56,874 nt of DNA from an uncultured bacterium (GCA_903906305.1 CAIVJR010000003.1:1-56874); one strand, 5' to 3'; positions 16,014 through 48,401 are shown, numbered from the stretch's first letter. The notes: a model not told the origin generated them from the letters alone. Program-made: numbers and translations.

Positions 16014-17000
16014 ATGGAAGACAAAAACAAAAAAGATATCACAGGGGCAATATTCTTAGTATCCATAGGAATACTATTCCTACTAAACACGACCAACATA
16101 GTTCCATGGGGGATATGGCTTCAGATATTTAGATTCTGGCCAATACTTCTAATACTTGCAGGTCTGAAAATAATATTACCTGAGAACAAAGCCGGGCAGG
16201 TAATATATCCAATTGTATATACACTGTTCATAATCTTCATTGGAGCAACATCATACTTTTTTACAAAAACACAGAAAGTTCCTTTCTTACCTGAAAGCGT
16301 CTCAAACTGTATATTTAACAGATGTGAGAATGTAAATGAAAGTGAGCTGATGGAAAGTGATGCATATGTTAATCTTGCAGATTATGCAGATATAACTTCA
16401 AGAGTCTTAGACTTGAATGTTGCAGCTTCAACGCTGTATTTGAACGATGAAGTTGCAGACTACTTCCTTCACTCTGAAATGAAAAACTATACTGAGGCAT
16501 ACAAACCAACATTAGAGAACACATCAAAAGAGGGTGTTTTAACTACAGTATTTGATAACACAAGAATACATAACTGGGGATGGTGGAATTTTAGATCTCC
16601 AGAATATACTCTTACACTTGGACAAAATACCATACCAACAGATATCACAATTGATCTAGGTGCAGGAGAAGGAATCGTAGATTTAGATTCAGCTTCAGTT
16701 AAGACATTTAAAGCAAGTGTGGGTGCTGGAAGTCTAGACATTACATTAGGTGAGAGTGCAATTCCTGAGACAATAGATATAAATGTAGGCGCAGGAGAGA
16801 TAACTCTAACACTTCCTGAGAGCATAGGTATATTGGTAACATATGATTTAGGAGTAGGTTCCATAAATCTTGATGACACAAGTATTGATGGCGTTGGGAA
16901 AGAAACCAACTACAAATCTACTAACTATGATACTGCTACAAAGAAAGTAGTAATTACTGCATCTGTAGGAGTAGGTGAGTTAACAATAGATCGAAAATAA
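16014..17000 (+). CDS. LiaF-like membrane protein (DUF5668-type TM region plus beta-helical repeat domain)
   Basis: 328 aa. N-terminal TM block (FLVSIGILFLLN..FWPILLILAGL). C-terminal VGAG-x-LDITL/VGAGEITLTL repeats as in DUF2154/toastrack-type domains. Confidence 0.5.
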   Translation: MEDKNKKDITGAIFLVSIGILFLLNTTNIVPWGIWLQIFRFWPILLILAGLKIILPENKAGQVIYPIVYTLFIIFIGATSYFFTKTQKVPFLPESVSNCIFNRCENVNESELMESDAYVNLADYADITSRVLDLNVAASTLYLNDEVADYFLHSEMKNYTEAYKPTLENTSKEGVLTTVFDNTRIHNWGWWNFRSPEYTLTLGQNTIPTDITIDLGAGEGIVDLDSASVKTFKASVGAGSLDITLGESAIPETIDINVGAGEITLTLPESIGILVTYDLGVGSINLDDTSIDGVGKETNYKSTNYDTATKKVVITASVGVGELTIDRK

Positions 17001-17024
17001 TTTAATTAACATATATTTAAAATC

Positions 17025-17702
17025 ATGAACACAAATTCAAAATTAGTAATCGGAGGACTTTTAATAATCCTTGGCCTCATATTCTTCCTACAAACATCAG
17101 GTGTATTACCTTTGTTGAATCTAAACGCAGGAGATGTCATCGGCTACCTATGGCCAGCTGCATTGCTAGGTGTTGGTATTAAAATGTTACTAGACAAAAA
17201 TACTGCTTCTGCAATACTCTTCCTTTCAATTGGATCAATCTTCCTCTTCACTAAACTCTTTTCATGGAATTTCTTTGCAGTGTTATGGCCAGTTGCAATA
17301 ATTGCCATTGGACTTTCCATGATCTTCAAGAAAGAAAGTACACATATGAACTTAGACAAGAAATACGATGAAAGTGACAAAGTATCTGAAGCTCTCATAT
17401 TCTGGGGAGTAGATAAAAGAATGGATTCAAAAGCATTTAAGGGTGGAGATATCTCTGCAATATTTGGTGGTGGGAAGTTAGACCTTAGAGATGCAAAAGT
17501 ACATAAGGATGGAGCGAAGTTAACCATTAACGCAATATTTGGTGGAGTAGAGGTTCTTGTACCTAAAGATTGTAAGATTGTTACAAATGGAACAGGCATA
17601 ATGGGAGGATGGGAAAGTAAGATTGCTTCGAGGGAAATTAAATCTCCAGTTCTAGAAATCACTGGTACTGCAATCTTTGGTGGGGTTGAAGTAAAAGAAT
17701 AG
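17025..17702 (+). CDS. LiaF-like cell-envelope stress membrane protein (DUF2154 C-domain)
   Basis: 225 aa with 4 TM helices, then AIFGGGKLDLRDA .. AIFGGVEVLVP .. AIFGGVEV repeats typical of the LiaF C-terminal domain. Confidence 0.55.
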   Translation: MNTNSKLVIGGLLIILGLIFFLQTSGVLPLLNLNAGDVIGYLWPAALLGVGIKMLLDKNTASAILFLSIGSIFLFTKLFSWNFFAVLWPVAIIAIGLSMIFKKESTHMNLDKKYDESDKVSEALIFWGVDKRMDSKAFKGGDISAIFGGGKLDLRDAKVHKDGAKLTINAIFGGVEVLVPKDCKIVTNGTGIMGGWESKIASREIKSPVLEITGTAIFGGVEVKE

Positions 17703-17739: not shown

Positions 17740-17750
17740 TGTGGTAAAAT
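17740..17750 (+). promoter_or_regulatory. extended -10 (TGTGGTAAAAT) upstream of typA
   Basis: 11 nt before ATG 17762. Shares the 14-mer GTGGTAAAATCCTA with the mraZ promoter. Confidence 0.5.
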
Positions 17751-17761
17751 CCTACCTTGTC

Positions 17762-19669
17762 ATGGAATATTCACCAATAGATCAAAAAAATCTAAGAAAC
17801 ATCGCTATTATTGCGCACGTAGACCACGGTAAAACTACCCTGGTCGATGCCTTTATGAAGCAAAACCATCTTTTTAGAGATAACCAGGATGAAATGTCTG
17901 AGACTCAGATTTTGGACTCAAGTGAATTAGAAAGAGAAAAGGGCATTACCATTAGTGCAAAGAATATTTCAATCAGATACAAGGGATACAAAATCAATAT
18001 CATTGATACTCCAGGTCATGCAGATTTCGGTGGAGAAGTAGAAAGAACATTAAATATGGCAGATAGCTGTTTACTTTTAGTAGATGCAAAAGAAGGACCA
18101 ATGCCACAAACAAAATTTGTCTTGAAGAGAGCATTGGAGATGGGACTCAAACCAATCGTTGTTGTAAACAAAATAGACAAGAAATTAGCAAATATCGAAA
18201 AAACAATTAGTAAAGTACAAGATCTCTTCTTAGCGTTAGCTACAGACTCTGAACAGTTAGAATTCCCTGTTTACTATGCAATAGCTAGAGAAGGTAAAAT
18301 CTTCAAGGAGATGCCAAAGGGTGACCTCACAGTACCTAATAGCGTACCAGGTGATGTAACTCCAATATTGGATGAGATCATTGCAAGTATGCCAGCACCA
18401 AAGGGTGACCCAGAAGGAGCATTCCAGATGCAAGTAACTTCTTTAGAATTTGATGTACATACTGGTAGATACCTAATTGGAGAAATCAATAGAGGAAGTG
18501 TAAAATTAAATGATCCAGTGATATTGATTTCTAACAAACCTGGAAAAGAAGAAAAAGTTCAAGGAAGAGTCAGAGGTCTTTTTGTTAAGGAAGGTATGGG
18601 ATGGCAGGCTATTACAGCTGCAAAAGCAGGAGAGATTGTCGCTATCACAGGTATCGAATCCACCAAAATTGGAGCAACTATATGTGATATCAACAACCAA
18701 GATGTACTTCCAGAAATTGCAATTACTCCACCATCAGTGAGAGTTAAATTTCAAGCTAATACCTCTCCTTTCTTAGGAAAAGAAGGTAAATTTGTTACAG
18801 ACAAACAGTTAGCACAAAGGTTAGAACAAGAAAAGAATTTAAACATTAGTTTGGATATTACAAACAATGGATCCAATAGTTTCTTTGTTGCAGGTAGAGG
18901 AGAACTTCAATTAGCAATCCTTGTTGAGCAATTAAGAAGAGAAGGATTCGAACTTCAATTGAGTAAGCCTGAGGTTATTCTTCAGAATATAGATGGTGTA
19001 ATCAGCGAACCTATTGAAGAACTAACAATTGATGCTCCAGAAGAATATATGAGTGTTGTAACACAAGAGGTAAGTGACAGAAAAGGTGAAATGATTAATA
19101 TTGAAAATGAAGATGGTCAAACTAGATTTACATACAAGATTTTAACCAGAAACTTGATTGGTCTTCACAGATCATTAATGAATGCTACAAAGGGAGAGGC
19201 TATAATCAACAGTTTCATTGCAGAATATATTCCATATATCAAACAACCGGAACTATTTAGAAAAGGTGTTATCGTATCCTCAGAGACAGGCACTGCACTT
19301 GGATATTCATTGACTACAATACAAGACAGAGGAAAGTTATTTATCTCTGGATCTGAACCTGTCTACGAAGGAATGGTTATTGGTATTAACAACAATGAAG
19401 AAGATATTATGGTAAACCCATGTAAGGCTAGACATAAGACTAACGTCAGAATGTCTCATGCTGAGGTCACTATCGTCTCTCTAAGGGCTACAATTCCTCT
19501 TACATTAGAATATGCACTTTCATTCATAAATGATGATGAGTTAATTGAAGTAACTCCTGTGAGTATTAGGTTGAGAAAGAAACTTCTTACTGATACTCAA
19601 AGAACATGGGCTAAGAGAAAGAATCTAACTGCATATGCACAGCAACAGTTAGAAGGTATGACTGAATAA
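17762..19669 (+). CDS. typA: translational GTPase TypA/BipA
   Basis: AHVDHGKTTL, DTPGH, NKID G-motifs with EF-G-like domains. First ATG is at 17762; the track start GTG 17741 is part of the promoter motif GTGGTAAAAT. Confidence 0.9.
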   Translation: MEYSPIDQKNLRNIAIIAHVDHGKTTLVDAFMKQNHLFRDNQDEMSETQILDSSELEREKGITISAKNISIRYKGYKINIIDTPGHADFGGEVERTLNMADSCLLLVDAKEGPMPQTKFVLKRALEMGLKPIVVVNKIDKKLANIEKTISKVQDLFLALATDSEQLEFPVYYAIAREGKIFKEMPKGDLTVPNSVPGDVTPILDEIIASMPAPKGDPEGAFQMQVTSLEFDVHTGRYLIGEINRGSVKLNDPVILISNKPGKEEKVQGRVRGLFVKEGMGWQAITAAKAGEIVAITGIESTKIGATICDINNQDVLPEIAITPPSVRVKFQANTSPFLGKEGKFVTDKQLAQRLEQEKNLNISLDITNNGSNSFFVAGRGELQLAILVEQLRREGFELQLSKPEVILQNIDGVISEPIEELTIDAPEEYMSVVTQEVSDRKGEMINIENEDGQTRFTYKILTRNLIGLHRSLMNATKGEAIINSFIAEYIPYIKQPELFRKGVIVSSETGTALGYSLTTIQDRGKLFISGSEPVYEGMVIGINNNEEDIMVNPCKARHKTNVRMSHAEVTIVSLRATIPLTLEYALSFINDDELIEVTPVSIRLRKKLLTDTQRTWAKRKNLTAYAQQQLEGMTE

Positions 19670-19878
19670 TCAGATACACCCAGCTACTTTCACAGATATA
19701 CCATACGATATTTCCTTGTAATAAAGGATTTCTTTTGTGTTGACTTTCATTTTCCAATAAAGGTAATATATAAGACAAGCAGGGGCATTGATGTTTGATT
19801 TTAACTGGTCGCTAATGAATCAAACGGAGCCAATAGCGAACCCAATCTGCAAATATAATAAGCTTTATATTTAAGGAT

Positions 19879-20385
19879 ATGAAAACAACTGCTCTCTTGG
19901 TTTCGCTTTCGTTAGTATGTCTTTGTCTTTTTTCAGCAAAAGTAGATGCTGCTGACAGTGCTACTGTAAATGCTACAGTGACAGCACAGAATATCTCAGT
20001 TACTGTATCAAGTGGAACCATTGCCTACGGAATTCTTCCTGTTAACACAAGCAAAAGCACAATTGCAGCTGATTTAAATGCATTACAGACAGCTACAAAT
20101 ACCGGTAATGTTGCAGAAGATTTAAATATTAAAGGAGCAAACAGTACAGCATGGACATTATCTGCAACACCTGGAGCAGAGCAATATACTCATAAATTCT
20201 GTACAACAACATGTACAACTCCTCCTACTAATTTCACAGCTTTAACAACAAATTACCAAACACTAGGTACAGATGTTGCAACAAGCGGAACTAAGACATT
20301 TGATTTACAAATCACAACACCAACATCAACAGCAGTATTCACAGCACAGAATGTAGATGTTATAGTACAAGCAGTTGCACACTAA
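19879..20385 (+). CDS. secreted Thr/Ala/Asn-rich small protein (putative surface-fibre subunit)
   Basis: 168 aa. Signal peptide ending KVDA|AD and no C-terminal anchor. Five N-x-S/T sequons. Motif TAQN-x-x-V-x-V occurs at both the mature N-terminus and the C-terminus. Confidence 0.5.
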   Translation: MKTTALLVSLSLVCLCLFSAKVDAADSATVNATVTAQNISVTVSSGTIAYGILPVNTSKSTIAADLNALQTATNTGNVAEDLNIKGANSTAWTLSATPGAEQYTHKFCTTTCTTPPTNFTALTTNYQTLGTDVATSGTKTFDLQITTPTSTAVFTAQNVDVIVQAVAH

Positions 20386-20407
20386 TTATTTTATATCTGA
20401 AAACTGA

Positions 20408-21016
20408 ATGAGAAAGTTATCTGTTATCCTGCTCTCTTTGGTAAGTGTTTGCCTTTTATCAACATTTGCATATGCAAAGATTGGGGTAGGAGTAGGAACA
20501 GGTAAAATTGTTGTTAATGATATTCTCAAACCAGGACAAATATATATACTTCCCTCATTAACAGTTTTAAATACTGGAGATGAAAAGTCAACCTACAAGG
20601 TATCTATATCGTATCATGAGAATCAACCCGAGTTAATGCCTTCACAAGATCTTTTTCAATTTTCCCCAGAGACATTTGAACTAGCACCTGGTGATGCTAA
20701 GGTAGTTAATATAAAACTTAATCTTCCCTTAAAGATAGAACCTGGAAAATATTTTGCATATCTTGAAGCTTCTCCAACTGCAACCGCAGAAACCTCCGCA
20801 GGTACATCCATAGGAGTAGCTGCAGCTGCTAAACTATACTTTGAAATAGCTCCTGCAAACATATTTCAAGCAATATATTACAAACTTGTTTCCCTTTGGA
20901 TCCTTTACTCTCCTTGGTCACTTAGAGTAACAATATTCATTGGATTAATAATCGCAGTTTTACTCTTGAGAAAGTTTTTAAATATAAATATAAGCCTAAG
21001 GAAGAAAGATGAATGA
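20408..21016 (+). CDS. signal-peptide protein with Ig-like beta-sandwich region and C-terminal TM anchor
   Basis: 202 aa. Signal peptide, then alternating beta-strand pattern (TYKVSISY, AKVVNIKLNL, GKYFAYLEA), then C-terminal helix VTIFIGLIIAVLLL followed by basic residues. Confidence 0.5.
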   Translation: MRKLSVILLSLVSVCLLSTFAYAKIGVGVGTGKIVVNDILKPGQIYILPSLTVLNTGDEKSTYKVSISYHENQPELMPSQDLFQFSPETFELAPGDAKVVNIKLNLPLKIEPGKYFAYLEASPTATAETSAGTSIGVAAAAKLYFEIAPANIFQAIYYKLVSLWILYSPWSLRVTIFIGLIIAVLLLRKFLNINISLRKKDE

Positions 21017-21546
21017 AAATCTTAGGAAAATTGATTGCAACAATTAGTTTAATATCTATACTCCCACTGGCAGTATTGGCATATTCAGATTCTTCTCGGA
21101 TAGGGGCATCTGTAAAGATATCGGTCTGTGGAGATGACATTATAGAAGGAAAAGAAGAATGCGAAAAGGGATTAGGTATACAATATAACTGTAAAGATTT
21201 TGGATACATCTCTAAACCAATTAGTTGCGATATTAGTTGCGCATATGATCTTTTGAGTTGCCAAACAGTAAAAGCAATTGATAATAATAACAATAATGAA
21301 GATATAGAAGAGTCATCCCTTCCAACTTTAATGATCGACTGGGATCAAGATAGTGATGGGATATTAACAATAAAAGAATTTGCTTCATTCATAACAAATT
21401 GGGTAAGTAACTGGAAATCATTCATTGTACTACCTAAAGAAAACATCGAAAAAGACACAGTTGCAAAGGAGTGTGATATTAATTCAGACAAAACATGTAA
21501 TATAACTGATTTCTCAATAATATTGTATTATTTAAATAATGACTAA
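21013..21546 (+). CDS. secreted Cys-rich-repeat protein with dockerin-like double EF-hand
   Basis: 177 aa. Signal peptide, CGDDIIEGKEECE Cys-rich repeat, poly-Asn linker, and two Ca-loop motifs DQDSDGILTIKE and DINSDKTCNITD. ATGA overlap with the upstream gene. Confidence 0.6.
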   Translation: MKILGKLIATISLISILPLAVLAYSDSSRIGASVKISVCGDDIIEGKEECEKGLGIQYNCKDFGYISKPISCDISCAYDLLSCQTVKAIDNNNNNEDIEESSLPTLMIDWDQDSDGILTIKEFASFITNWVSNWKSFIVLPKENIEKDTVAKECDINSDKTCNITDFSIILYYLNND

Positions 21547-22579
21547 TCGAGAAAGAATAAAACCAATACAAACTATTCTCCTACTGATTCCTACAGTTGC
21601 CCTGTCTTGGATCTTTGTACATGTATTTGCAATCTTAGGTATCTTTTTAGCTGTCGCATACCCAATATGGTGGCTAATATTCCCTAAGGGTACTCCATGC
21701 ATTTTCTGTAGGACAACTCCATTAGGTGAAGAATGTCCCGCTTGTCATGAAGTAGTTACAATTGATAGAAGGTCACCAGCAAATTTCATCTCGGTAACAA
21801 AAAACTTTTTATTAATAATGTTAATTTCAGGTATTTCAGTATTAGCTGTATATGGAGAAACTTTAGCACTTGGTAAGCTTGGAATACAATTAGAAGAAGC
21901 CAAAGTGGAATTCGTCATACAGGACAAACAACAGTACAAAATTGGAGAAATATTTCCAATTGATTTGAATATAAATAGTAATGGGGTAAATATAAATGCA
22001 GTACAAACAGATATCGGTTTTAACCCAGACAAAATTGAGATAGTAAAACTTTCATTAGAAGAGTCCTTTGCACAAATATTTATTCAAAAAGAGATTAATA
22101 ACGATAGTGGATATTTGAGAGTTACAGGAGGATTACCTTCACCAGGATACAACGGTGATAATGGCCATTTTGCTACAGTATACTTTCGATCCAAAGAAGC
22201 CGGCATATTTGATATACAATTTCTTCCATCCTCCCTTGTGTTAGAAAATGACGGGAATGGGACTAATGTTCTTAAGTCATATCCAAAAACTTCATATTTA
22301 ATCAAACCTGAATATGTCACAGAAACAGAAAAGGAACTTCAAAGCACTATCTTAAGTCTTAATGGAAATGGAGTACTTGGGGTTGATTCAACCAATAAAC
22401 AGATGTTGTTCTTTGATAGTACTAATAACACGGAAAATATTATGGGTGTAGAAGATATTGATGATACAGATACAACAGAAAAAGCAGAAGAAACGAAATC
22501 ATTTTGGAAGATATTATTAATGATTGATCAATGGATTGTTGGAATACTAGCAAAATTATTAGAGGTATTTAAATTCTAA
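21539..22579 (+). CDS. membrane-anchored cohesin-domain protein with cytoplasmic Cys4 loop
   Basis: 346 aa. Two N-terminal TM helices, CIFC..CPAC, a third TM helix, then a cohesin-like domain (KIGEIFPIDLNINSNGVNINAVQTDIGFNPDKIEIV..GHFATVYFRSKEAGIFDIQF), an acidic linker and a C-terminal hydrophobic helix. Confidence 0.6.
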   Translation: MTNRERIKPIQTILLLIPTVALSWIFVHVFAILGIFLAVAYPIWWLIFPKGTPCIFCRTTPLGEECPACHEVVTIDRRSPANFISVTKNFLLIMLISGISVLAVYGETLALGKLGIQLEEAKVEFVIQDKQQYKIGEIFPIDLNINSNGVNINAVQTDIGFNPDKIEIVKLSLEESFAQIFIQKEINNDSGYLRVTGGLPSPGYNGDNGHFATVYFRSKEAGIFDIQFLPSSLVLENDGNGTNVLKSYPKTSYLIKPEYVTETEKELQSTILSLNGNGVLGVDSTNKQMLFFDSTNNTENIMGVEDIDDTDTTEKAEETKSFWKILLMIDQWIVGILAKLLEVFKF

Positions 22580-22580
22580 T

Positions 22581-22616
22581 AAAAAAAAGGGAGACCTTTC
22601 GGTCTCCCTTTAATTT
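22581..22616. terminator. bidirectional intrinsic terminator
   Basis: A8 tract, then perfect 8-bp GC-rich hairpin GGGAGACC-tttc-GGTCTCCC (22589-22608), then a T-rich tail. Lies between convergent genes. Confidence 0.8.
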
Positions 22617-22631
22617 CAAAACAACAACGGA

Positions 22632-22940
22632 TTACCTTCTGTCGTAACCACCTCTGTTATCTCTATCACCAAATGATCTGTTCTCTCTAGGAGTTTCCTC
22701 TCTAGCTTCAGATACATTCAATGCTCTTGCGTCAAGCTCTTTTCCGTTTAACTCAGCGATTGCTCTCTGAGCTTCTTCTTCGGTTGACATCTTAACAAAA
22801 CCAAATCCTTTAGATCGGTTTTTGATTCTGTCTTTTATAACGACTGCTTCAAGAACAGTACCAACAGAACTAAAGAAATCTTTAAGCATAGCGTCATCGA
22901 CGTTCCAGCTCAAGTTTCCTACAAATAACTTGTTTCCCAT
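22632..22940 (-). CDS. RRM-type RNA-binding protein with Arg/Gly-rich tail
   Basis: 102 aa with RNP-2 LFVGNL and RNP-1 KGFGFVKM. Confidence 0.85.
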   Translation of the reverse strand: MGNKLFVGNLSWNVDDAMLKDFFSSVGTVLEAVVIKDRIKNRSKGFGFVKMSTEEEAQRAIAELNGKELDARALNVSEAREETPRENRSFGDRDNRGGYDRR

Positions 22941-25271: not shown

Positions 25272-25988
25272 ATGAAAAATATTAAAAAGACACTATTATT
25301 TTCACTTATCATATTCATTGGATTGATATCAGCTCGCCAAGTTATGGCAAGTACGACATATACCCAAACTGAAGTAGCACAACATAATACAAGTAGTAAT
25401 TGTTGGGCGATATATGAAAGTGAGGTATACGATATAACTACATATTTGAATATACATAATCAGAAATATTCAGATATTACCTCATGGTGTGGAACTGATA
25501 TGACAACTGATTTTGACAGTGTTCGAAAACATCAGGGAGAAGCTACTACATTATTAGCATCTTTTAAGGTCGGAACAATCTCTACTGCTACACCTTCTAC
25601 TACTACACAAACTTCAACAGTAACGGATACAAGTTCACAAACTGAAACTACGGCAACATCAAATACAACAGTACTAAAAAATCCATATAATTTGTTTCTA
25701 CCTTTAATTCTTGGAATGGTATTGTATTGGGGAAGCCTACTAATATTCAGCAAATACCTCAAACAATTTAATGCCTTCTGGAATACAATTCTTCTACTTA
25801 CATTCTTGATACCAACTTTTGGTTTTGGAATCTTCATGATGTTCCAATATAGATTTCCTTCGCTCATGGATACAAGCTTCAGATTTATGTACTGGCATGT
25901 AGAATTCTCCGTATTTATGGGTGTGCTTGGAATCTCTCACTTCATACGTAGAGCAAAAATATATTTAATGCAAATCAAACAAAGATGA
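25272..25988 (+). CDS. membrane protein with extracytoplasmic cytochrome-b5-like domain and His-containing 4-TM C-domain
   Basis: 238 aa. Signal/anchor, then EVAQHNTSSNCWAIYESEVYDITTYLNIH..TDF..RKH (cyt-b5 fold pattern, HPGG replaced by IHNQ), a Thr-rich linker, and TM helices with WHVEF/SHF histidines. Confidence 0.5.
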   Translation: MKNIKKTLLFSLIIFIGLISARQVMASTTYTQTEVAQHNTSSNCWAIYESEVYDITTYLNIHNQKYSDITSWCGTDMTTDFDSVRKHQGEATTLLASFKVGTISTATPSTTTQTSTVTDTSSQTETTATSNTTVLKNPYNLFLPLILGMVLYWGSLLIFSKYLKQFNAFWNTILLLTFLIPTFGFGIFMMFQYRFPSLMDTSFRFMYWHVEFSVFMGVLGISHFIRRAKIYLMQIKQR

Positions 25989-26530
25989 TAGAGAAGATAG
26001 CAATACATACATGCTGTGCCGATTGTTTAATACACTTAGTAGAATCACTTGAAGAGGAAAAGCAAATTTCAAAAAATACAGAAATCGCTCTTCTTTTTTA
26101 CAATCCCAATATACATCCTAAGACAGAGTATATGGAGAGATTGAATGCACTTAAGATTGTCTTGAAGGAAAAATATCCAGATTGGGATATGAGGTTAGTA
26201 GTTCCAGATTACAAACCACAGGAATATTTTGAAAGTATAGTAGGAAGGGAAAAACGATGTTTGGGATGTTGGGAATTGAGACTCGCAAAAGCTTTTGAAT
26301 ATGCCAAAGCACATGATATTAGATATATATCTTCAACACTCCTTGGAAGTCATTACCAAGATAAAGCAACAATTTTAGAGATTGCAAAACGATTAGAAGA
26401 TAAAGATACCAATATCATATATCCAAAAGATGAACACGATCATCCAATGAATAGGGGATTTTACAAGCAAAATTATTGTGGGTGTTGCTATTCATTAAAT
26501 GAAAAACTTTTTGAAAAGTACGTAAAGTAA
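25985..26530 (+). CDS. queH: epoxyqueuosine reductase QueH (DUF208)
   Basis: 181 aa. HTCCADC near the N-terminus and QNYCGCCYS near the C-terminus, as in QueH. Confidence 0.75.
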   Translation: MIEKIAIHTCCADCLIHLVESLEEEKQISKNTEIALLFYNPNIHPKTEYMERLNALKIVLKEKYPDWDMRLVVPDYKPQEYFESIVGREKRCLGCWELRLAKAFEYAKAHDIRYISSTLLGSHYQDKATILEIAKRLEDKDTNIIYPKDEHDHPMNRGFYKQNYCGCCYSLNEKLFEKYVK

Positions 26531-26767: not shown

Positions 26768-27478
26768 ATGGTTTCGAAAACATCAGAGAATTCCGCTCTG
26801 TTAGTTGAAAAGAACACTGATATTCTAAAAGTTTTAAAACCTTGTTTCCTTTACCACGAGATACATTTGACTCATCTAAAGGATATTTCAGATATTCCTA
26901 TTTCACTTAGTAGTAGATATTCTCTTTTAATATTAGATCTCAAGCTTTTAAATCCAACAAACATCGAATATTTTAAAAAAGTTAGAGAGCAGAATCTATT
27001 CTTACCAATTATAGCTACAGGACCAAATGATATATCAGATGCTATTAATTCATTTACTCTTGGGATTAATCTCTATCATTCGAAGCCAATCTGTTGTGAA
27101 TTGTTAAAAGCTCAAATTGGTCAATTAACATCTTTCTTTAGTAGAAAAGTAATATTTGAGATTGGAGATATAATGATAGATTTGGCTTCCAAATCATTTT
27201 TTGTTAAGAATAAGAAAATTCCTCTTACATACCAAGAGTTCCACCTTCTTGCACTATTAATGCGGGCTAGGGGACATATAGTTAGTAGAGATTGTATTAG
27301 TAAGTACTTTGCAGGAAAGCATGAAGAAATTAGTTATGCCGCAGTTGATACCTTAGTTAGCAGAATTAGATCTAAGCTTAAATCACATCTCAAAGAACCA
27401 CTAATTCAAACTGTTCATAAGGTAGGGTATAGAATAAATACAATATATTTCAAAGACCTCCACATTGAAAAAAGCTAA
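26768..27478 (+). CDS. OmpR-family winged-helix regulator with atypical receiver domain
   Basis: 236 aa. C-terminal Trans_reg_C pattern (YQEFHLLALLM..VDTLVSRIRSKL..VHKVGYRI). The receiver keeps the Asp (LLILDLKL), Thr and Lys (HSKP), but the acidic pair is E-K (LLVEKN) instead of D-D. Confidence 0.7.
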   Translation: MVSKTSENSALLVEKNTDILKVLKPCFLYHEIHLTHLKDISDIPISLSSRYSLLILDLKLLNPTNIEYFKKVREQNLFLPIIATGPNDISDAINSFTLGINLYHSKPICCELLKAQIGQLTSFFSRKVIFEIGDIMIDLASKSFFVKNKKIPLTYQEFHLLALLMRARGHIVSRDCISKYFAGKHEEISYAAVDTLVSRIRSKLKSHLKEPLIQTVHKVGYRINTIYFKDLHIEKS

Positions 27479-48329: not shown

Positions 48330-48350
48330 GGGAATATTTAGTCTAGATCA

Positions 48351-48389
48351 TACCGGGGGGCCTTTTGGAAAAAACCTCCCGGTATTTTT
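48351..48389 (+). terminator. intrinsic terminator
   Basis: 10-bp stem TACCGGGGGG / CCTCCCGGTA (one G.U) followed by T5. Confidence 0.7.
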
Positions 48390-48401
48390 GTAAAAAGTGA
48401 T

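Follow-up and report, generated by a model that had tools for sequence, protein, structure and literature searches.

A conserved four-gene cell-surface cassette of Patescibacteria with a cohesin-type membrane protein, an EF-hand adaptor and a candidate fibre subunit

A stretch of 56,874 nt from an uncultured bacterium (GCA_903906305.1, CAIVJR010000003.1:1-56874), referred to here as the window, carries four consecutive genes, g1 to g4, that are one copy of a conserved cell-surface cassette of Patescibacteria. All four are on the plus strand: g1 (19879..20385) encodes a small secreted beta-sandwich subunit of 168 amino acids (aa), g2 (20408..21016) a 202 aa protein with a signal peptide, an immunoglobulin (Ig)-like domain and a C-terminal transmembrane (TM) anchor, g3 (21013..21546) a secreted adaptor of 177 aa, and g4 (21539..22579) a membrane anchor of 346 aa. 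An earlier note on this DNA had described a secreted and membrane-bound surface operon here. The analysis supports that description, and the open reading frame (ORF) listing returns the four genes at exactly the same coordinates. The spacing between g1 and g2 is 22 nt; the overlaps that the note gave, 4 nt between g2 and g3 (ATGA) and 8 nt between g3 and g4, can be read directly from the sequence. Reading of the translated sequences likewise shows signal-peptide-like N-termini in g1, g2 and g3, the C-terminal TM segment of g2, the Cys-rich segment and two Ca-type loops of g3, and the Cys4 motif and hydrophobic segments of g4, all as previously described. A Shine-Dalgarno box, AAGGA, is found ahead of g1 (4 nt upstream of the ATG) and ahead of g3, but inspection of the start regions of g2 and g4 reveals none. 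Translation of g2 and g4 probably depends on coupling.

Related loci were collected by scanning one genome per species, which gave 62 loci (cited below by L numbers), 45 of them with enough upstream sequence to judge, and both the four proteins of the window and family profiles served as queries against their ORFs. The order g1-g2-g3-g4, with identical orientation, is present in 34 of the 45 informative loci. The four genes therefore do co-occur in relatives, which is what the earlier note had proposed as the test of its operon. With the exception of a few obviously mislabelled contigs of metagenome-assembled genomes, all loci are from Patescibacteria, very small and probably host-dependent bacteria of the candidate phyla radiation (CPR), in agreement with the CPR-type cell suggested before. 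The groups named are Dojkabacteria/WS6, WWE3, and Levy-, Roizman-, Woese-, Shapiro-, Ames-, Beckwith- and Daviesbacteria, those besides the first two being also summed up as Microgenomates. Homologues number 348 for g4, 193 for g1 and, in a word-indexed search, 19 for g3. Genes that adjoin the cassette vary from locus to locus; e.g., bipA lies downstream in a Dojkabacteria locus, and a Levybacteria locus has a sortase gene upstream and a PIN-domain gene downstream. As the flanking genes vary, the four genes travel as a unit. No published description of the cassette was found in the literature on Patescibacteria/CPR in connection with cohesin/dockerin, chaperone-usher or WxL systems.

The g1 protein consists of a signal peptide (residues 1-24), an N-terminal strand (residues 25-38, ADSATVNATVTAQN; 19951..19992, plus strand) and a core (residues 39-168) with invariant W92-T-L94 and C108/C112. 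Identity between g1 homologues is 56-98% across phyla, compared with about 42% for g4 and about 30% for g3. No Pfam domain is detected in the window protein or in the family members. An AlphaFold model of g1 is a beta-sandwich (predicted local distance difference test score, pLDDT, 91.6) in which the first 15 or so residues of the mature protein are unstructured in the monomer. These residues lie directly after the signal-peptide cleavage site, where the segment DTATVAATVTVQN is hydrophobic at every second residue (A-V-A-V-A); the strand is among the most conserved stretches of the protein, with A32, V34 and T35 invariant, and is a candidate donor strand. A search of the PDB by fold has at the top of its matches the chaperone-usher pilins FimA, FimG, PapE, CfaB and CS20, and an archaeal bundling pilin is also listed.

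Important is the distribution of the g1 domain between small and large proteins. The g1 profile finds 1381 clusters in an exhaustive library, and the best 150 of these split into 80 small and 70 large proteins (up to 1581 aa), with the domain C-terminal in every large one. On sequences aligned to the g1 profile, the N-terminal strand was counted as present when it agreed with the consensus at half or more of its residues. By this count it is found in 62 of the 80 small proteins and in only 1 of the 70 large ones, whereas the core is equally conserved in both (identity to the consensus 0.54 in small and 0.61 in large proteins). Thus the strand is specific to the small subunit. In addition, 28 of the 34 canonical loci have an adjoining large protein of 286-1495 aa, usually encoded just upstream of g1, that carries the g1 core at its extreme C-terminus. 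The N-terminal heads of these proteins vary, and match Gly_rich_2, BNR, DUF7483 with fn3, or no family. This domain architecture is stronger evidence for a role of g1 as a fibre subunit than is the fold.

The closest relative in the genome collection, L006 (g4 76% identical), encodes a protein of 1495 aa directly after g4 (L006:6998-11485), at a position where the window has only a terminator. It displays DUF7483 (best stretch residues 70-373), a DUF7361 stretch (488-549), weak fn3 similarity and a C-terminal g1 domain. The difference between the two looks like gain or loss of an adhesin gene between close relatives.

Three other assignments of g1 were tried and rejected. Neither the WxL model (PF13731, E of 1 or less) nor the TasA/camelysin model (Peptidase_M73, PF12389) matches the window protein or any of 57 family members, and an S-layer protein was set aside on general grounds, i.e., g1 is too small and too conserved, and its domain is common with large multi-domain proteins.

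The single Ig domain of g2 is held at the membrane by a TM helix at the C-terminus. The protein has a signal peptide (residues 1-23), the one Ig-like domain, a juxtamembrane aromatic helix and the TM segment at about residues 171-190. A Pfam scan of 37 family members reveals weak affinities only: fn3_5 in 21, NPCBM_assoc in 16, PapD_N in 9, and the Ig domains of HYDIN, ASH and Cep192 in 7, 5 and 3, respectively, these three being domains that we take to belong to the PapD-like clan. WxLIP_PGBD matches one of the 37 (E 0.091). The g2 profile also finds, with an E of 1.5e-7, the DUF916-positive two-domain proteins of the variant cassettes described below, which are paralogs of g2. For WxL clusters, AlphaFold2 is reported to predict insertion of a DUF916 strand into the WxL domain (PMC10599100). 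On the basis of these similarities, g2 may be read as a membrane-tethered holder or chaperone of PapD/DUF916 type.

The layout of g3 is a signal peptide (residues 1-23), a conserved strand, xATVKISV, a six-Cys module (C39-C83), a variable linker, and a C-terminal pair of EF-hands (residues 103-175). This architecture is constant across 42 members, in which the linker is often Pro/Thr-rich and the spacer between the two Ca-binding loops is variable. The family motifs of the C-terminal part are LPxLxxFDxNxDGxIxxxE...WVxxW and, beyond the variable spacer, CDxNxDxxCxxxDFSILLYY. Loop 1 (DQDSDGILTIKE, residues 111-122; 21343..21378, plus strand) is of the canonical EF-hand type, with position 12 occupied by Glu; it is conserved in the alignments and is preceded by an entering helix. 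Loop 2 (DINSDKTCNITD, residues 155-166; 21475..21510, plus strand) has the dockerin-like pattern D-x-N-x-D...N...D, is framed by C154 and C162, and runs into the helix FSIILYYL; C154, D155, N157, D159, C162 and D166 are invariant or nearly so. Both loops are followed by a helix conserved in the family.

Profile matches of this module go to EF-hands and, in part, to dockerins. In the window protein, residues 93-128 match EF-hand_1/6/7, at weak E values of 0.02-0.1. Within the family, EF-hand_1 matches 25 of the 42 members (best 9.4e-7) and reaches its cut-off in L002 (25.5 vs 25.4 bits). Dockerin_1 (PF00404) also matches 25 of the 42 at an E of 0.1 or less (best 1.5e-5). Among 10 members inspected, a Dockerin_1 match extends across both halves in one relative only (20.6 bits), and the partial matches elsewhere map to the loop-2 half. 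When the g3 family profile is compared with PDB sequences, the EF-hand pairs of calmodulin and secretagogin align across both loops with E values of 4e-9 to 1e-6. Thus the C-terminal module is a Ca-binding EF-hand pair whose second half resembles a dockerin. Membership in the dockerin family is not established: Dockerin_1 stays below its cut-off in the 10 members inspected, and EF-hand models score as well or better. The dockerin assigned to g3 in the earlier note is retained in part, i.e., as two Ca loops with helices and a dockerin pattern in loop 2. Similarly, the Cys-rich repeat attributed to g3 is present as a conserved motif, C-G-[DN]-x3-E-x2-E-x-C-[ED], but its matches to named families are below threshold: DUF4215 in 10 of the 42 members (best 0.0023) and TIGR02232, the Myxococcus Cys-rich repeat, in 8 (best 0.022).

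The g4 protein spans the membrane with three TM segments and has a cohesin-type domain outside the cell. It starts with a hydrophobic hairpin (residues 12-48), followed by a Cys4 loop, TM3 (88-106), an ectodomain (about 122-260), an acidic tail and a C-terminal amphipathic helix (321-346). In the family alignment the 37-residue hydrophobic stretch has invariant H28, G34, P42 and P49, near-invariant S23, Y41, W44 and W45, and the motif AYPIWW; E107, directly after TM3, is also invariant. The four cysteines are C54, C57, C66 and C69 (CxxC...CxxC). Over 44 homologues the net charge is +4.1 for the Cys4 loop and -5.0 for the ectodomain. This charge balance agrees with the three-TM protein with a cytoplasmic Cys4 loop that had been proposed, and fits a topology in which the N-terminus would be inside and the TM hairpin would be followed by the Cys4 loop in the cytoplasm and the cohesin-type domain outside. 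H28 (21620-21622), at the turn of the TM hairpin, and E107 (21857-21859) are both predicted at the outer face of the membrane.

The cohesin assignment of g4, which the earlier note had made for the window protein, is obtained at the family level: Pfam Cohesin (PF00963) matches 35 of 44 family members (best E 2.6e-9), but not the window copy itself. In L031, residues 124-223 align with positions 3-107 of the Cohesin profile at 25.8 bits, above the cut-off of 24.1. The ectodomain of the window protein (21902..22318, plus strand) aligns with this stretch of L031, and its identity to Cohesin-matching members across the domain is 40-45%. A profile of the ectodomain alone, compared with PDB sequences, has the cellulosomal cohesin 5g5d_A as its first match, in two collinear pieces that are not significant (E 0.28); the whole-length g4 profile gives spurious Skp1 matches only. 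Several g4 homologues are already named "cohesin domain-containing protein" in the database.

Genes g3 and g4 are adjacent and overlapping in essentially every locus. The 11 non-canonical loci comprise ten variant cassettes (L028-L030, L034, L038, L040, L047, L049, L053 and L063) and one locus with a gene fusion, L031, and no cassette variant lacks g4. The variant cassettes have other proteins in place of both g1 and g2. The stand-ins for g2 are two DUF916-like proteins of two domains each; they match WxLIP_PGBD/DUF916, one of them above the cut-off (28.4 vs 27.3 bits; E 1.9e-6). A different protein pair, again with a common C-terminal domain, stands in for g1 and the large protein. Most variants retain a g3-like gene beside g4, and the C-terminal EF-hand module is detected in the L029 copy; in the two variants examined for this, L029 and L047, the N-terminal half of g3 has no Cys-rich module and is exchanged for Ig domains, Big_6 in both and Big_13 in L029. 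The second cassette type with g4 and a g3-like protein is found at L029:99-7020, L034:47-7056, L047:124-7068 and in L053. Its protein pair consists of a 335-365 aa protein and a protein of about 600 aa, and their common C-terminal domain ends in ...GxYTTTVxLTATPSY.

The fusion at L031:4603-6225 is natural, and joins g4 residues 1-324 to a Pro/Thr-rich linker of about 130 residues and then to the g3 EF-hand module, which is on the extracellular side; no g1 or g2 is found upstream. With the cohesin and its presumed partner on one chain, molecules of this type could self-associate. The adjacency that is kept in the variants, the coupling of the two genes by their 8-nt overlap and the fusion in L031 support g3 and g4 as a functional pair, a pairing that the earlier note had suggested. 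Such a pattern would arise if g3 used its constant C-terminal module to dock on g4 and its variable N-terminal half to engage cargo.

The cassette can be compared with several known systems. In WxL clusters (Csc; found in Lactobacillales, Enterococcus and Listeria), a small WxL protein, a large WxL protein and WxLIP (DUF916-DUF3324-TM) are encoded together. The likeness extends to a small secreted protein made of the domain only, to large proteins that end in the shared domain and have variable, adhesin-like heads at the N-terminus, to an Ig-fold protein that starts with a signal peptide and is anchored by a C-terminal TM segment, and to occurrence in monoderm cells. The small domain-only protein, the large protein with a C-terminal domain and host-binding heads, and the Ig-fold TM protein are described for WxL clusters in PMC10599100 and PMC9772566. 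However, g1 lacks a WxL model match and has a single W-x-L motif where WxL proteins have two, g2 has one Ig domain and is linked to DUF916 only via its paralogs, no LPXTG protein is present, and the cassette adds the conserved EF-hand/dockerin-like g3 and the cohesin membrane protein g4. The hosts also differ: Firmicutes account for more than 91% of WxL sequences (PMC9772566), and the cassette is found in Patescibacteria.

With chaperone-usher pili (Fim, Pap, CFA/I, Csu) the cassette has in common a major subunit with an alternating-hydrophobic N-terminal extension, a two-domain tip adhesin in which the pilin-type domain is C-terminal and lacks the extension, and an Ig-like partner with PapD_N affinity, in addition to the weak fold matches of g1 to FimA, FimG, PapE and CfaB. 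The cassette differs in that there is no outer membrane, Patescibacteria being regarded as single-membrane cells, and no usher: none is found among the family matches of the four proteins or in the gene tables of L001-L005. There is also no detectable sequence homology; g2 is one-domain and membrane-tethered, whereas the pilus chaperone is soluble and has two domains, and the base would be held by a cohesin membrane protein. Chaperone-free donor-strand filaments (TasA/TapA fibres, archaeal bundling pili, threads and cannulae) are similar in having a Sec-exported subunit whose N-terminus after cleavage is the donor strand. In TasA/TapA fibres, strand complementation by the accessory TapA serves to nucleate or anchor the fibre. 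Ca2+ participates in the assembly of cannulae (bioRxiv 10.1101/2024.12.30.630787; PMC9245690). The cassette differs from these filaments in having no TasA/Peptidase_M73 match and no dedicated signal peptidase in the operon, and in the addition of the chaperone-like g2 and the g3-g4 pair.

Non-cellulosomal cohesin-dockerin pairs resemble g3 and g4 in that a single cohesin-type domain lies beside a protein with a duplicated Ca-binding loop and helix, with no glycoside hydrolases. Here, however, the membrane protein that carries the cohesin is polytopic and has a Cys4 loop in the cytoplasm, the g3 module scores at least as well with EF-hand pairs as with dockerins, and the pair sits in a fibre/adhesin operon. 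Pfam and NCBIfam scans of the four window proteins, which gave weak matches only, show no enzyme domain, in keeping with the earlier statement that this is not a cellulosome, and no other cohesin or dockerin-like ORF is found within the window. Thus the cassette is not a cellulosome, because it has no enzymes and only one cohesin. Nor is it a member of the WxL, TasA or chaperone-usher families, whose defining profiles or components are absent. By analogy, its nearest functional counterparts may be WxL clusters and donor-strand pili, combined here with a cohesin/dockerin-like anchor of non-cellulosomal kind. The earlier note was largely right about the locus, but it undersold it, as it missed the breadth of the cassette, the large g1-domain proteins, the strand of the small subunit and the PapD/DUF916-like character of g2.

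The reading that we favor, and for which the case for and against is about evenly balanced, is that the cassette assembles and anchors fibres or adhesins built from the g1 beta-sandwich domain. All four products would be exported or inserted by Sec. The g2 protein would then use beta-strand complementation to retain g1-domain proteins at the membrane after their export, in the way that PapD holds pilins and that AlphaFold predicts for DUF916 with WxL, and the candidate strands of g2 for the g1 groove are IGVGVGTGKI or SIGVAAAAKLYF. The N-terminal strand of one g1 would fill the next g1-domain subunit, such that copies of g1 form a stalk, with the large adhesin, which has no strand of its own, at the distal tip. 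At the base, g3 would tie the assembly to the membrane, its EF-hand/dockerin-like module docking on the cohesin domain of g4. The variable N-terminal half of g3 (here the ATVKISV strand and the Cys-rich module) would contact the fibre, and its conserved N-terminal strand may cap the last g1. Polymerization of g1 and binding of g3 to g4 are steps that we infer. True donor-strand polymerization, taken by itself, is possible but somewhat doubtful.

A bolder form of this proposal can be put forward only tentatively. The cassette would then represent a new class of pilus, a donor-strand-exchange fibre of single-membrane bacteria with g2 as a membrane-tethered one-domain PapD/DUF916-like chaperone, interchangeable adhesin tips, and a three-TM protein to which the fibre is fixed through a Ca-dependent joint of cohesin-dockerin-like type. 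Microgenomates, Dojkabacteria and WWE3 would attach to their hosts by means of this organelle, which would also provide a mechanistic link between WxL clusters and chaperone-usher pili.

Several observations weigh against fibre assembly by g1 and its anchoring through g3 and g4. The fold matches of g1 to pilins are weak (E 2.5e-3 at best, template modelling scores 0.4-0.5), and in a control fold search against viral structures uncharacterized phage beta-sandwiches score equally well; because of this, a "pilin fold" of g1 is not established. Sequence profiles of g1 and g2, compared with PDB sequences, give no match for either, and PapD_N is matched by only 9 of the 37 g2 members (best 7.6e-4), below the cut-off. 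A search of the ORFs of at least 50 aa in the 57-kb window finds no large g1-domain protein, and the gene for a large adhesin may therefore lie elsewhere in the genome. For g3, the Dockerin_1 scores are 13-21 bits in the 10 members inspected, below the gathering value of 22.9, and EF-hand models fit equally well or better; the window protein has no Dockerin_1 match in the Pfam scan. The distance from loop to loop is long (44 residues in the window protein) and variable in relatives, and an AlphaFold model of g3 made with 19 sequences was unusable (pLDDT 48). The window g4 is without a Cohesin match in the Pfam scan at an E of 1 or less. Finally, the conservation of the g4 membrane hairpin, with H28, and of E107 after TM3, exceeds what a passive anchor needs and is unexplained by the model.

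The main rival to fibre assembly is a complex of WxL-cluster type that does not polymerize. Single copies of g1 and of the large proteins would be held non-covalently at the wall and membrane by g2, the counterpart of WxLIP, and would present adhesin heads; g3 and g4 would be an extra tether and no filament would form. We regard this as a possibility to be kept in view, albeit with limited confidence. The parts list agrees with that of the published WxL clusters (PMC10599100, PMC9772566), the paralogs of g2 match DUF916 above the cut-off, g1 has the invariant W-T-L motif, and the weakness of the pilin-fold evidence for g1 also favors it. However, no member of the g1 family matches PF13731, and g1 has one WxL motif in place of the two of the WxL family; g2 has one Ig domain and not DUF916 plus DUF3324. 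A complex of single copies would also leave unexplained the alternating, highly conserved N-terminal strand that is limited to the small proteins, and the much higher conservation of g1 relative to the other components.

The cohesin-dockerin reading of the earlier note, taken literally, would have a true type-I-like dockerin on g3 binding the g4 cohesin in a Ca-dependent manner as a self-contained display scaffold, with g1 and g2 as an accessory fibre pair and the Cys4 zinc ribbon signalling across the membrane. The family-level Cohesin matches of g4, the fusion of g4 and g3 in L031, the fit of loop 2 (DINSDKTCNITD) and its helix to the dockerin pattern, and the one relative that matches Dockerin_1 over both halves at 20.6 bits are all in line with it. 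Nevertheless it is improbable, as none of the members inspected reaches the Dockerin_1 cut-off, loop 1, with its entering helix and its Glu at position 12, is a canonical EF-hand, and the best profile matches are to calmodulin-type pairs. As for signalling, no evidence for it was obtained, and at least one family member, P0118, has lost the Cys4 motif with the rest of the protein kept. The exceptional conservation of the TM hairpin and the invariant E107, both H28 and E107 facing outwards by topology, together with the presence of g4 in all cassette variants, could also point to g4 as a membrane-embedded processing or assembly enzyme. In that case it would be a maturation factor or polymerase for g1-type subunits (a SipW- or usher-like part), with an active site at H28/E107 and a cohesin fold that binds the substrate. 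This is very unlikely: profile scans with the window protein and the family show no match to a protease, sortase or transferase family, no catalytic motif is recognizable, and the idea rests purely on the pattern of conservation.

The biological role of the cassette is likely attachment to host cells or surfaces by bacteria of episymbiont type. To our knowledge, apart from the type IV pili of Saccharibacteria, little has been learned about the means by which CPR/Patescibacteria attach to their hosts. The cassette is widespread in the branch of Microgenomates, Dojkabacteria and WWE3, and an unusually conserved main subunit with swappable heads is the expected look of an organelle for attachment to hosts or surfaces. 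It thus offers a widespread candidate attachment apparatus with concrete, small, expressible proteins. If strand exchange by g1 were true, chaperone-assisted pilus assembly would no longer be confined to bacteria with a double membrane, and a mechanism would be at hand for the WxL clusters of lactic acid bacteria and enterococci, which are poorly understood. In the g3-g4 pair, if the model is right, a cohesin-dockerin-like joint would have the structural task of anchoring a pilus.

The operon is flanked upstream by typA/bipA (17741-19669) and, beyond g4, by a convergent gene for an RRM RNA-binding protein (22632-22940, minus strand). The gap of 209 nt between typA/bipA and g1 holds a promoter-like site, TTGACT and TAATAT separated by an 18-nt spacer (19740..19769, plus strand). 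It is a consensus match only, and the searched region has 23 such sites compared with 20.9 expected. The operon is closed by a hairpin whose core (22589-22608) is a perfect 8-bp GC-rich stem, GGGAGACC-TTTC-GGTCTCCC; a scan lengthens it to 11 pairs (22586..22611; -15.9 kcal/mol). On the plus strand the hairpin has A8 ahead and TTTAATTT behind, and on the minus strand T8 is behind. With these flanks it can terminate both convergent transcripts, and it is thus a bidirectional intrinsic terminator common to g4 and the RRM gene. The earlier note had called it the strongest terminator of the window, which is slightly overstated: the hairpin is real, but it is the second most stable T-tailed hairpin within the window. 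The most stable is at 48345-48392 on the plus strand (ACCGGGGGGCC...CCTCCCGGTA followed by TTTTT), with -17.9 kcal/mol.

Other features of the window are outside the cassette. Upstream of typA, two adjacent membrane proteins of 328 and 225 aa are encoded on the plus strand (16014-17702). They have N-terminal TM bundles and C-terminal beta-rich repeats (...GAGxIxL..., FGGxxV...) and, because the flanks differ in relatives, are not members of the cassette. Downstream, ARAGORN finds a tRNA-Leu(aag) at 27170-27258 (plus strand) that the Rfam tRNA model does not report at its gathering score, whereas the other three tRNAs of the window (Leu-cag, Cys-gca and Leu-taa) are found by both. Two further ORFs on the plus strand overlap by 4 nt. 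The product of the first (25272-25988), secreted or membrane-bound, combines several TM segments with a linker rich in Thr, and the counterpart of the second (25985-26530) in L004/L005 matches QueH. The L004/L005 counterpart of the first has a Cyt-b5 heme-binding domain, and a b5-type heme domain is somewhat unexpected in a minimal CPR genome.

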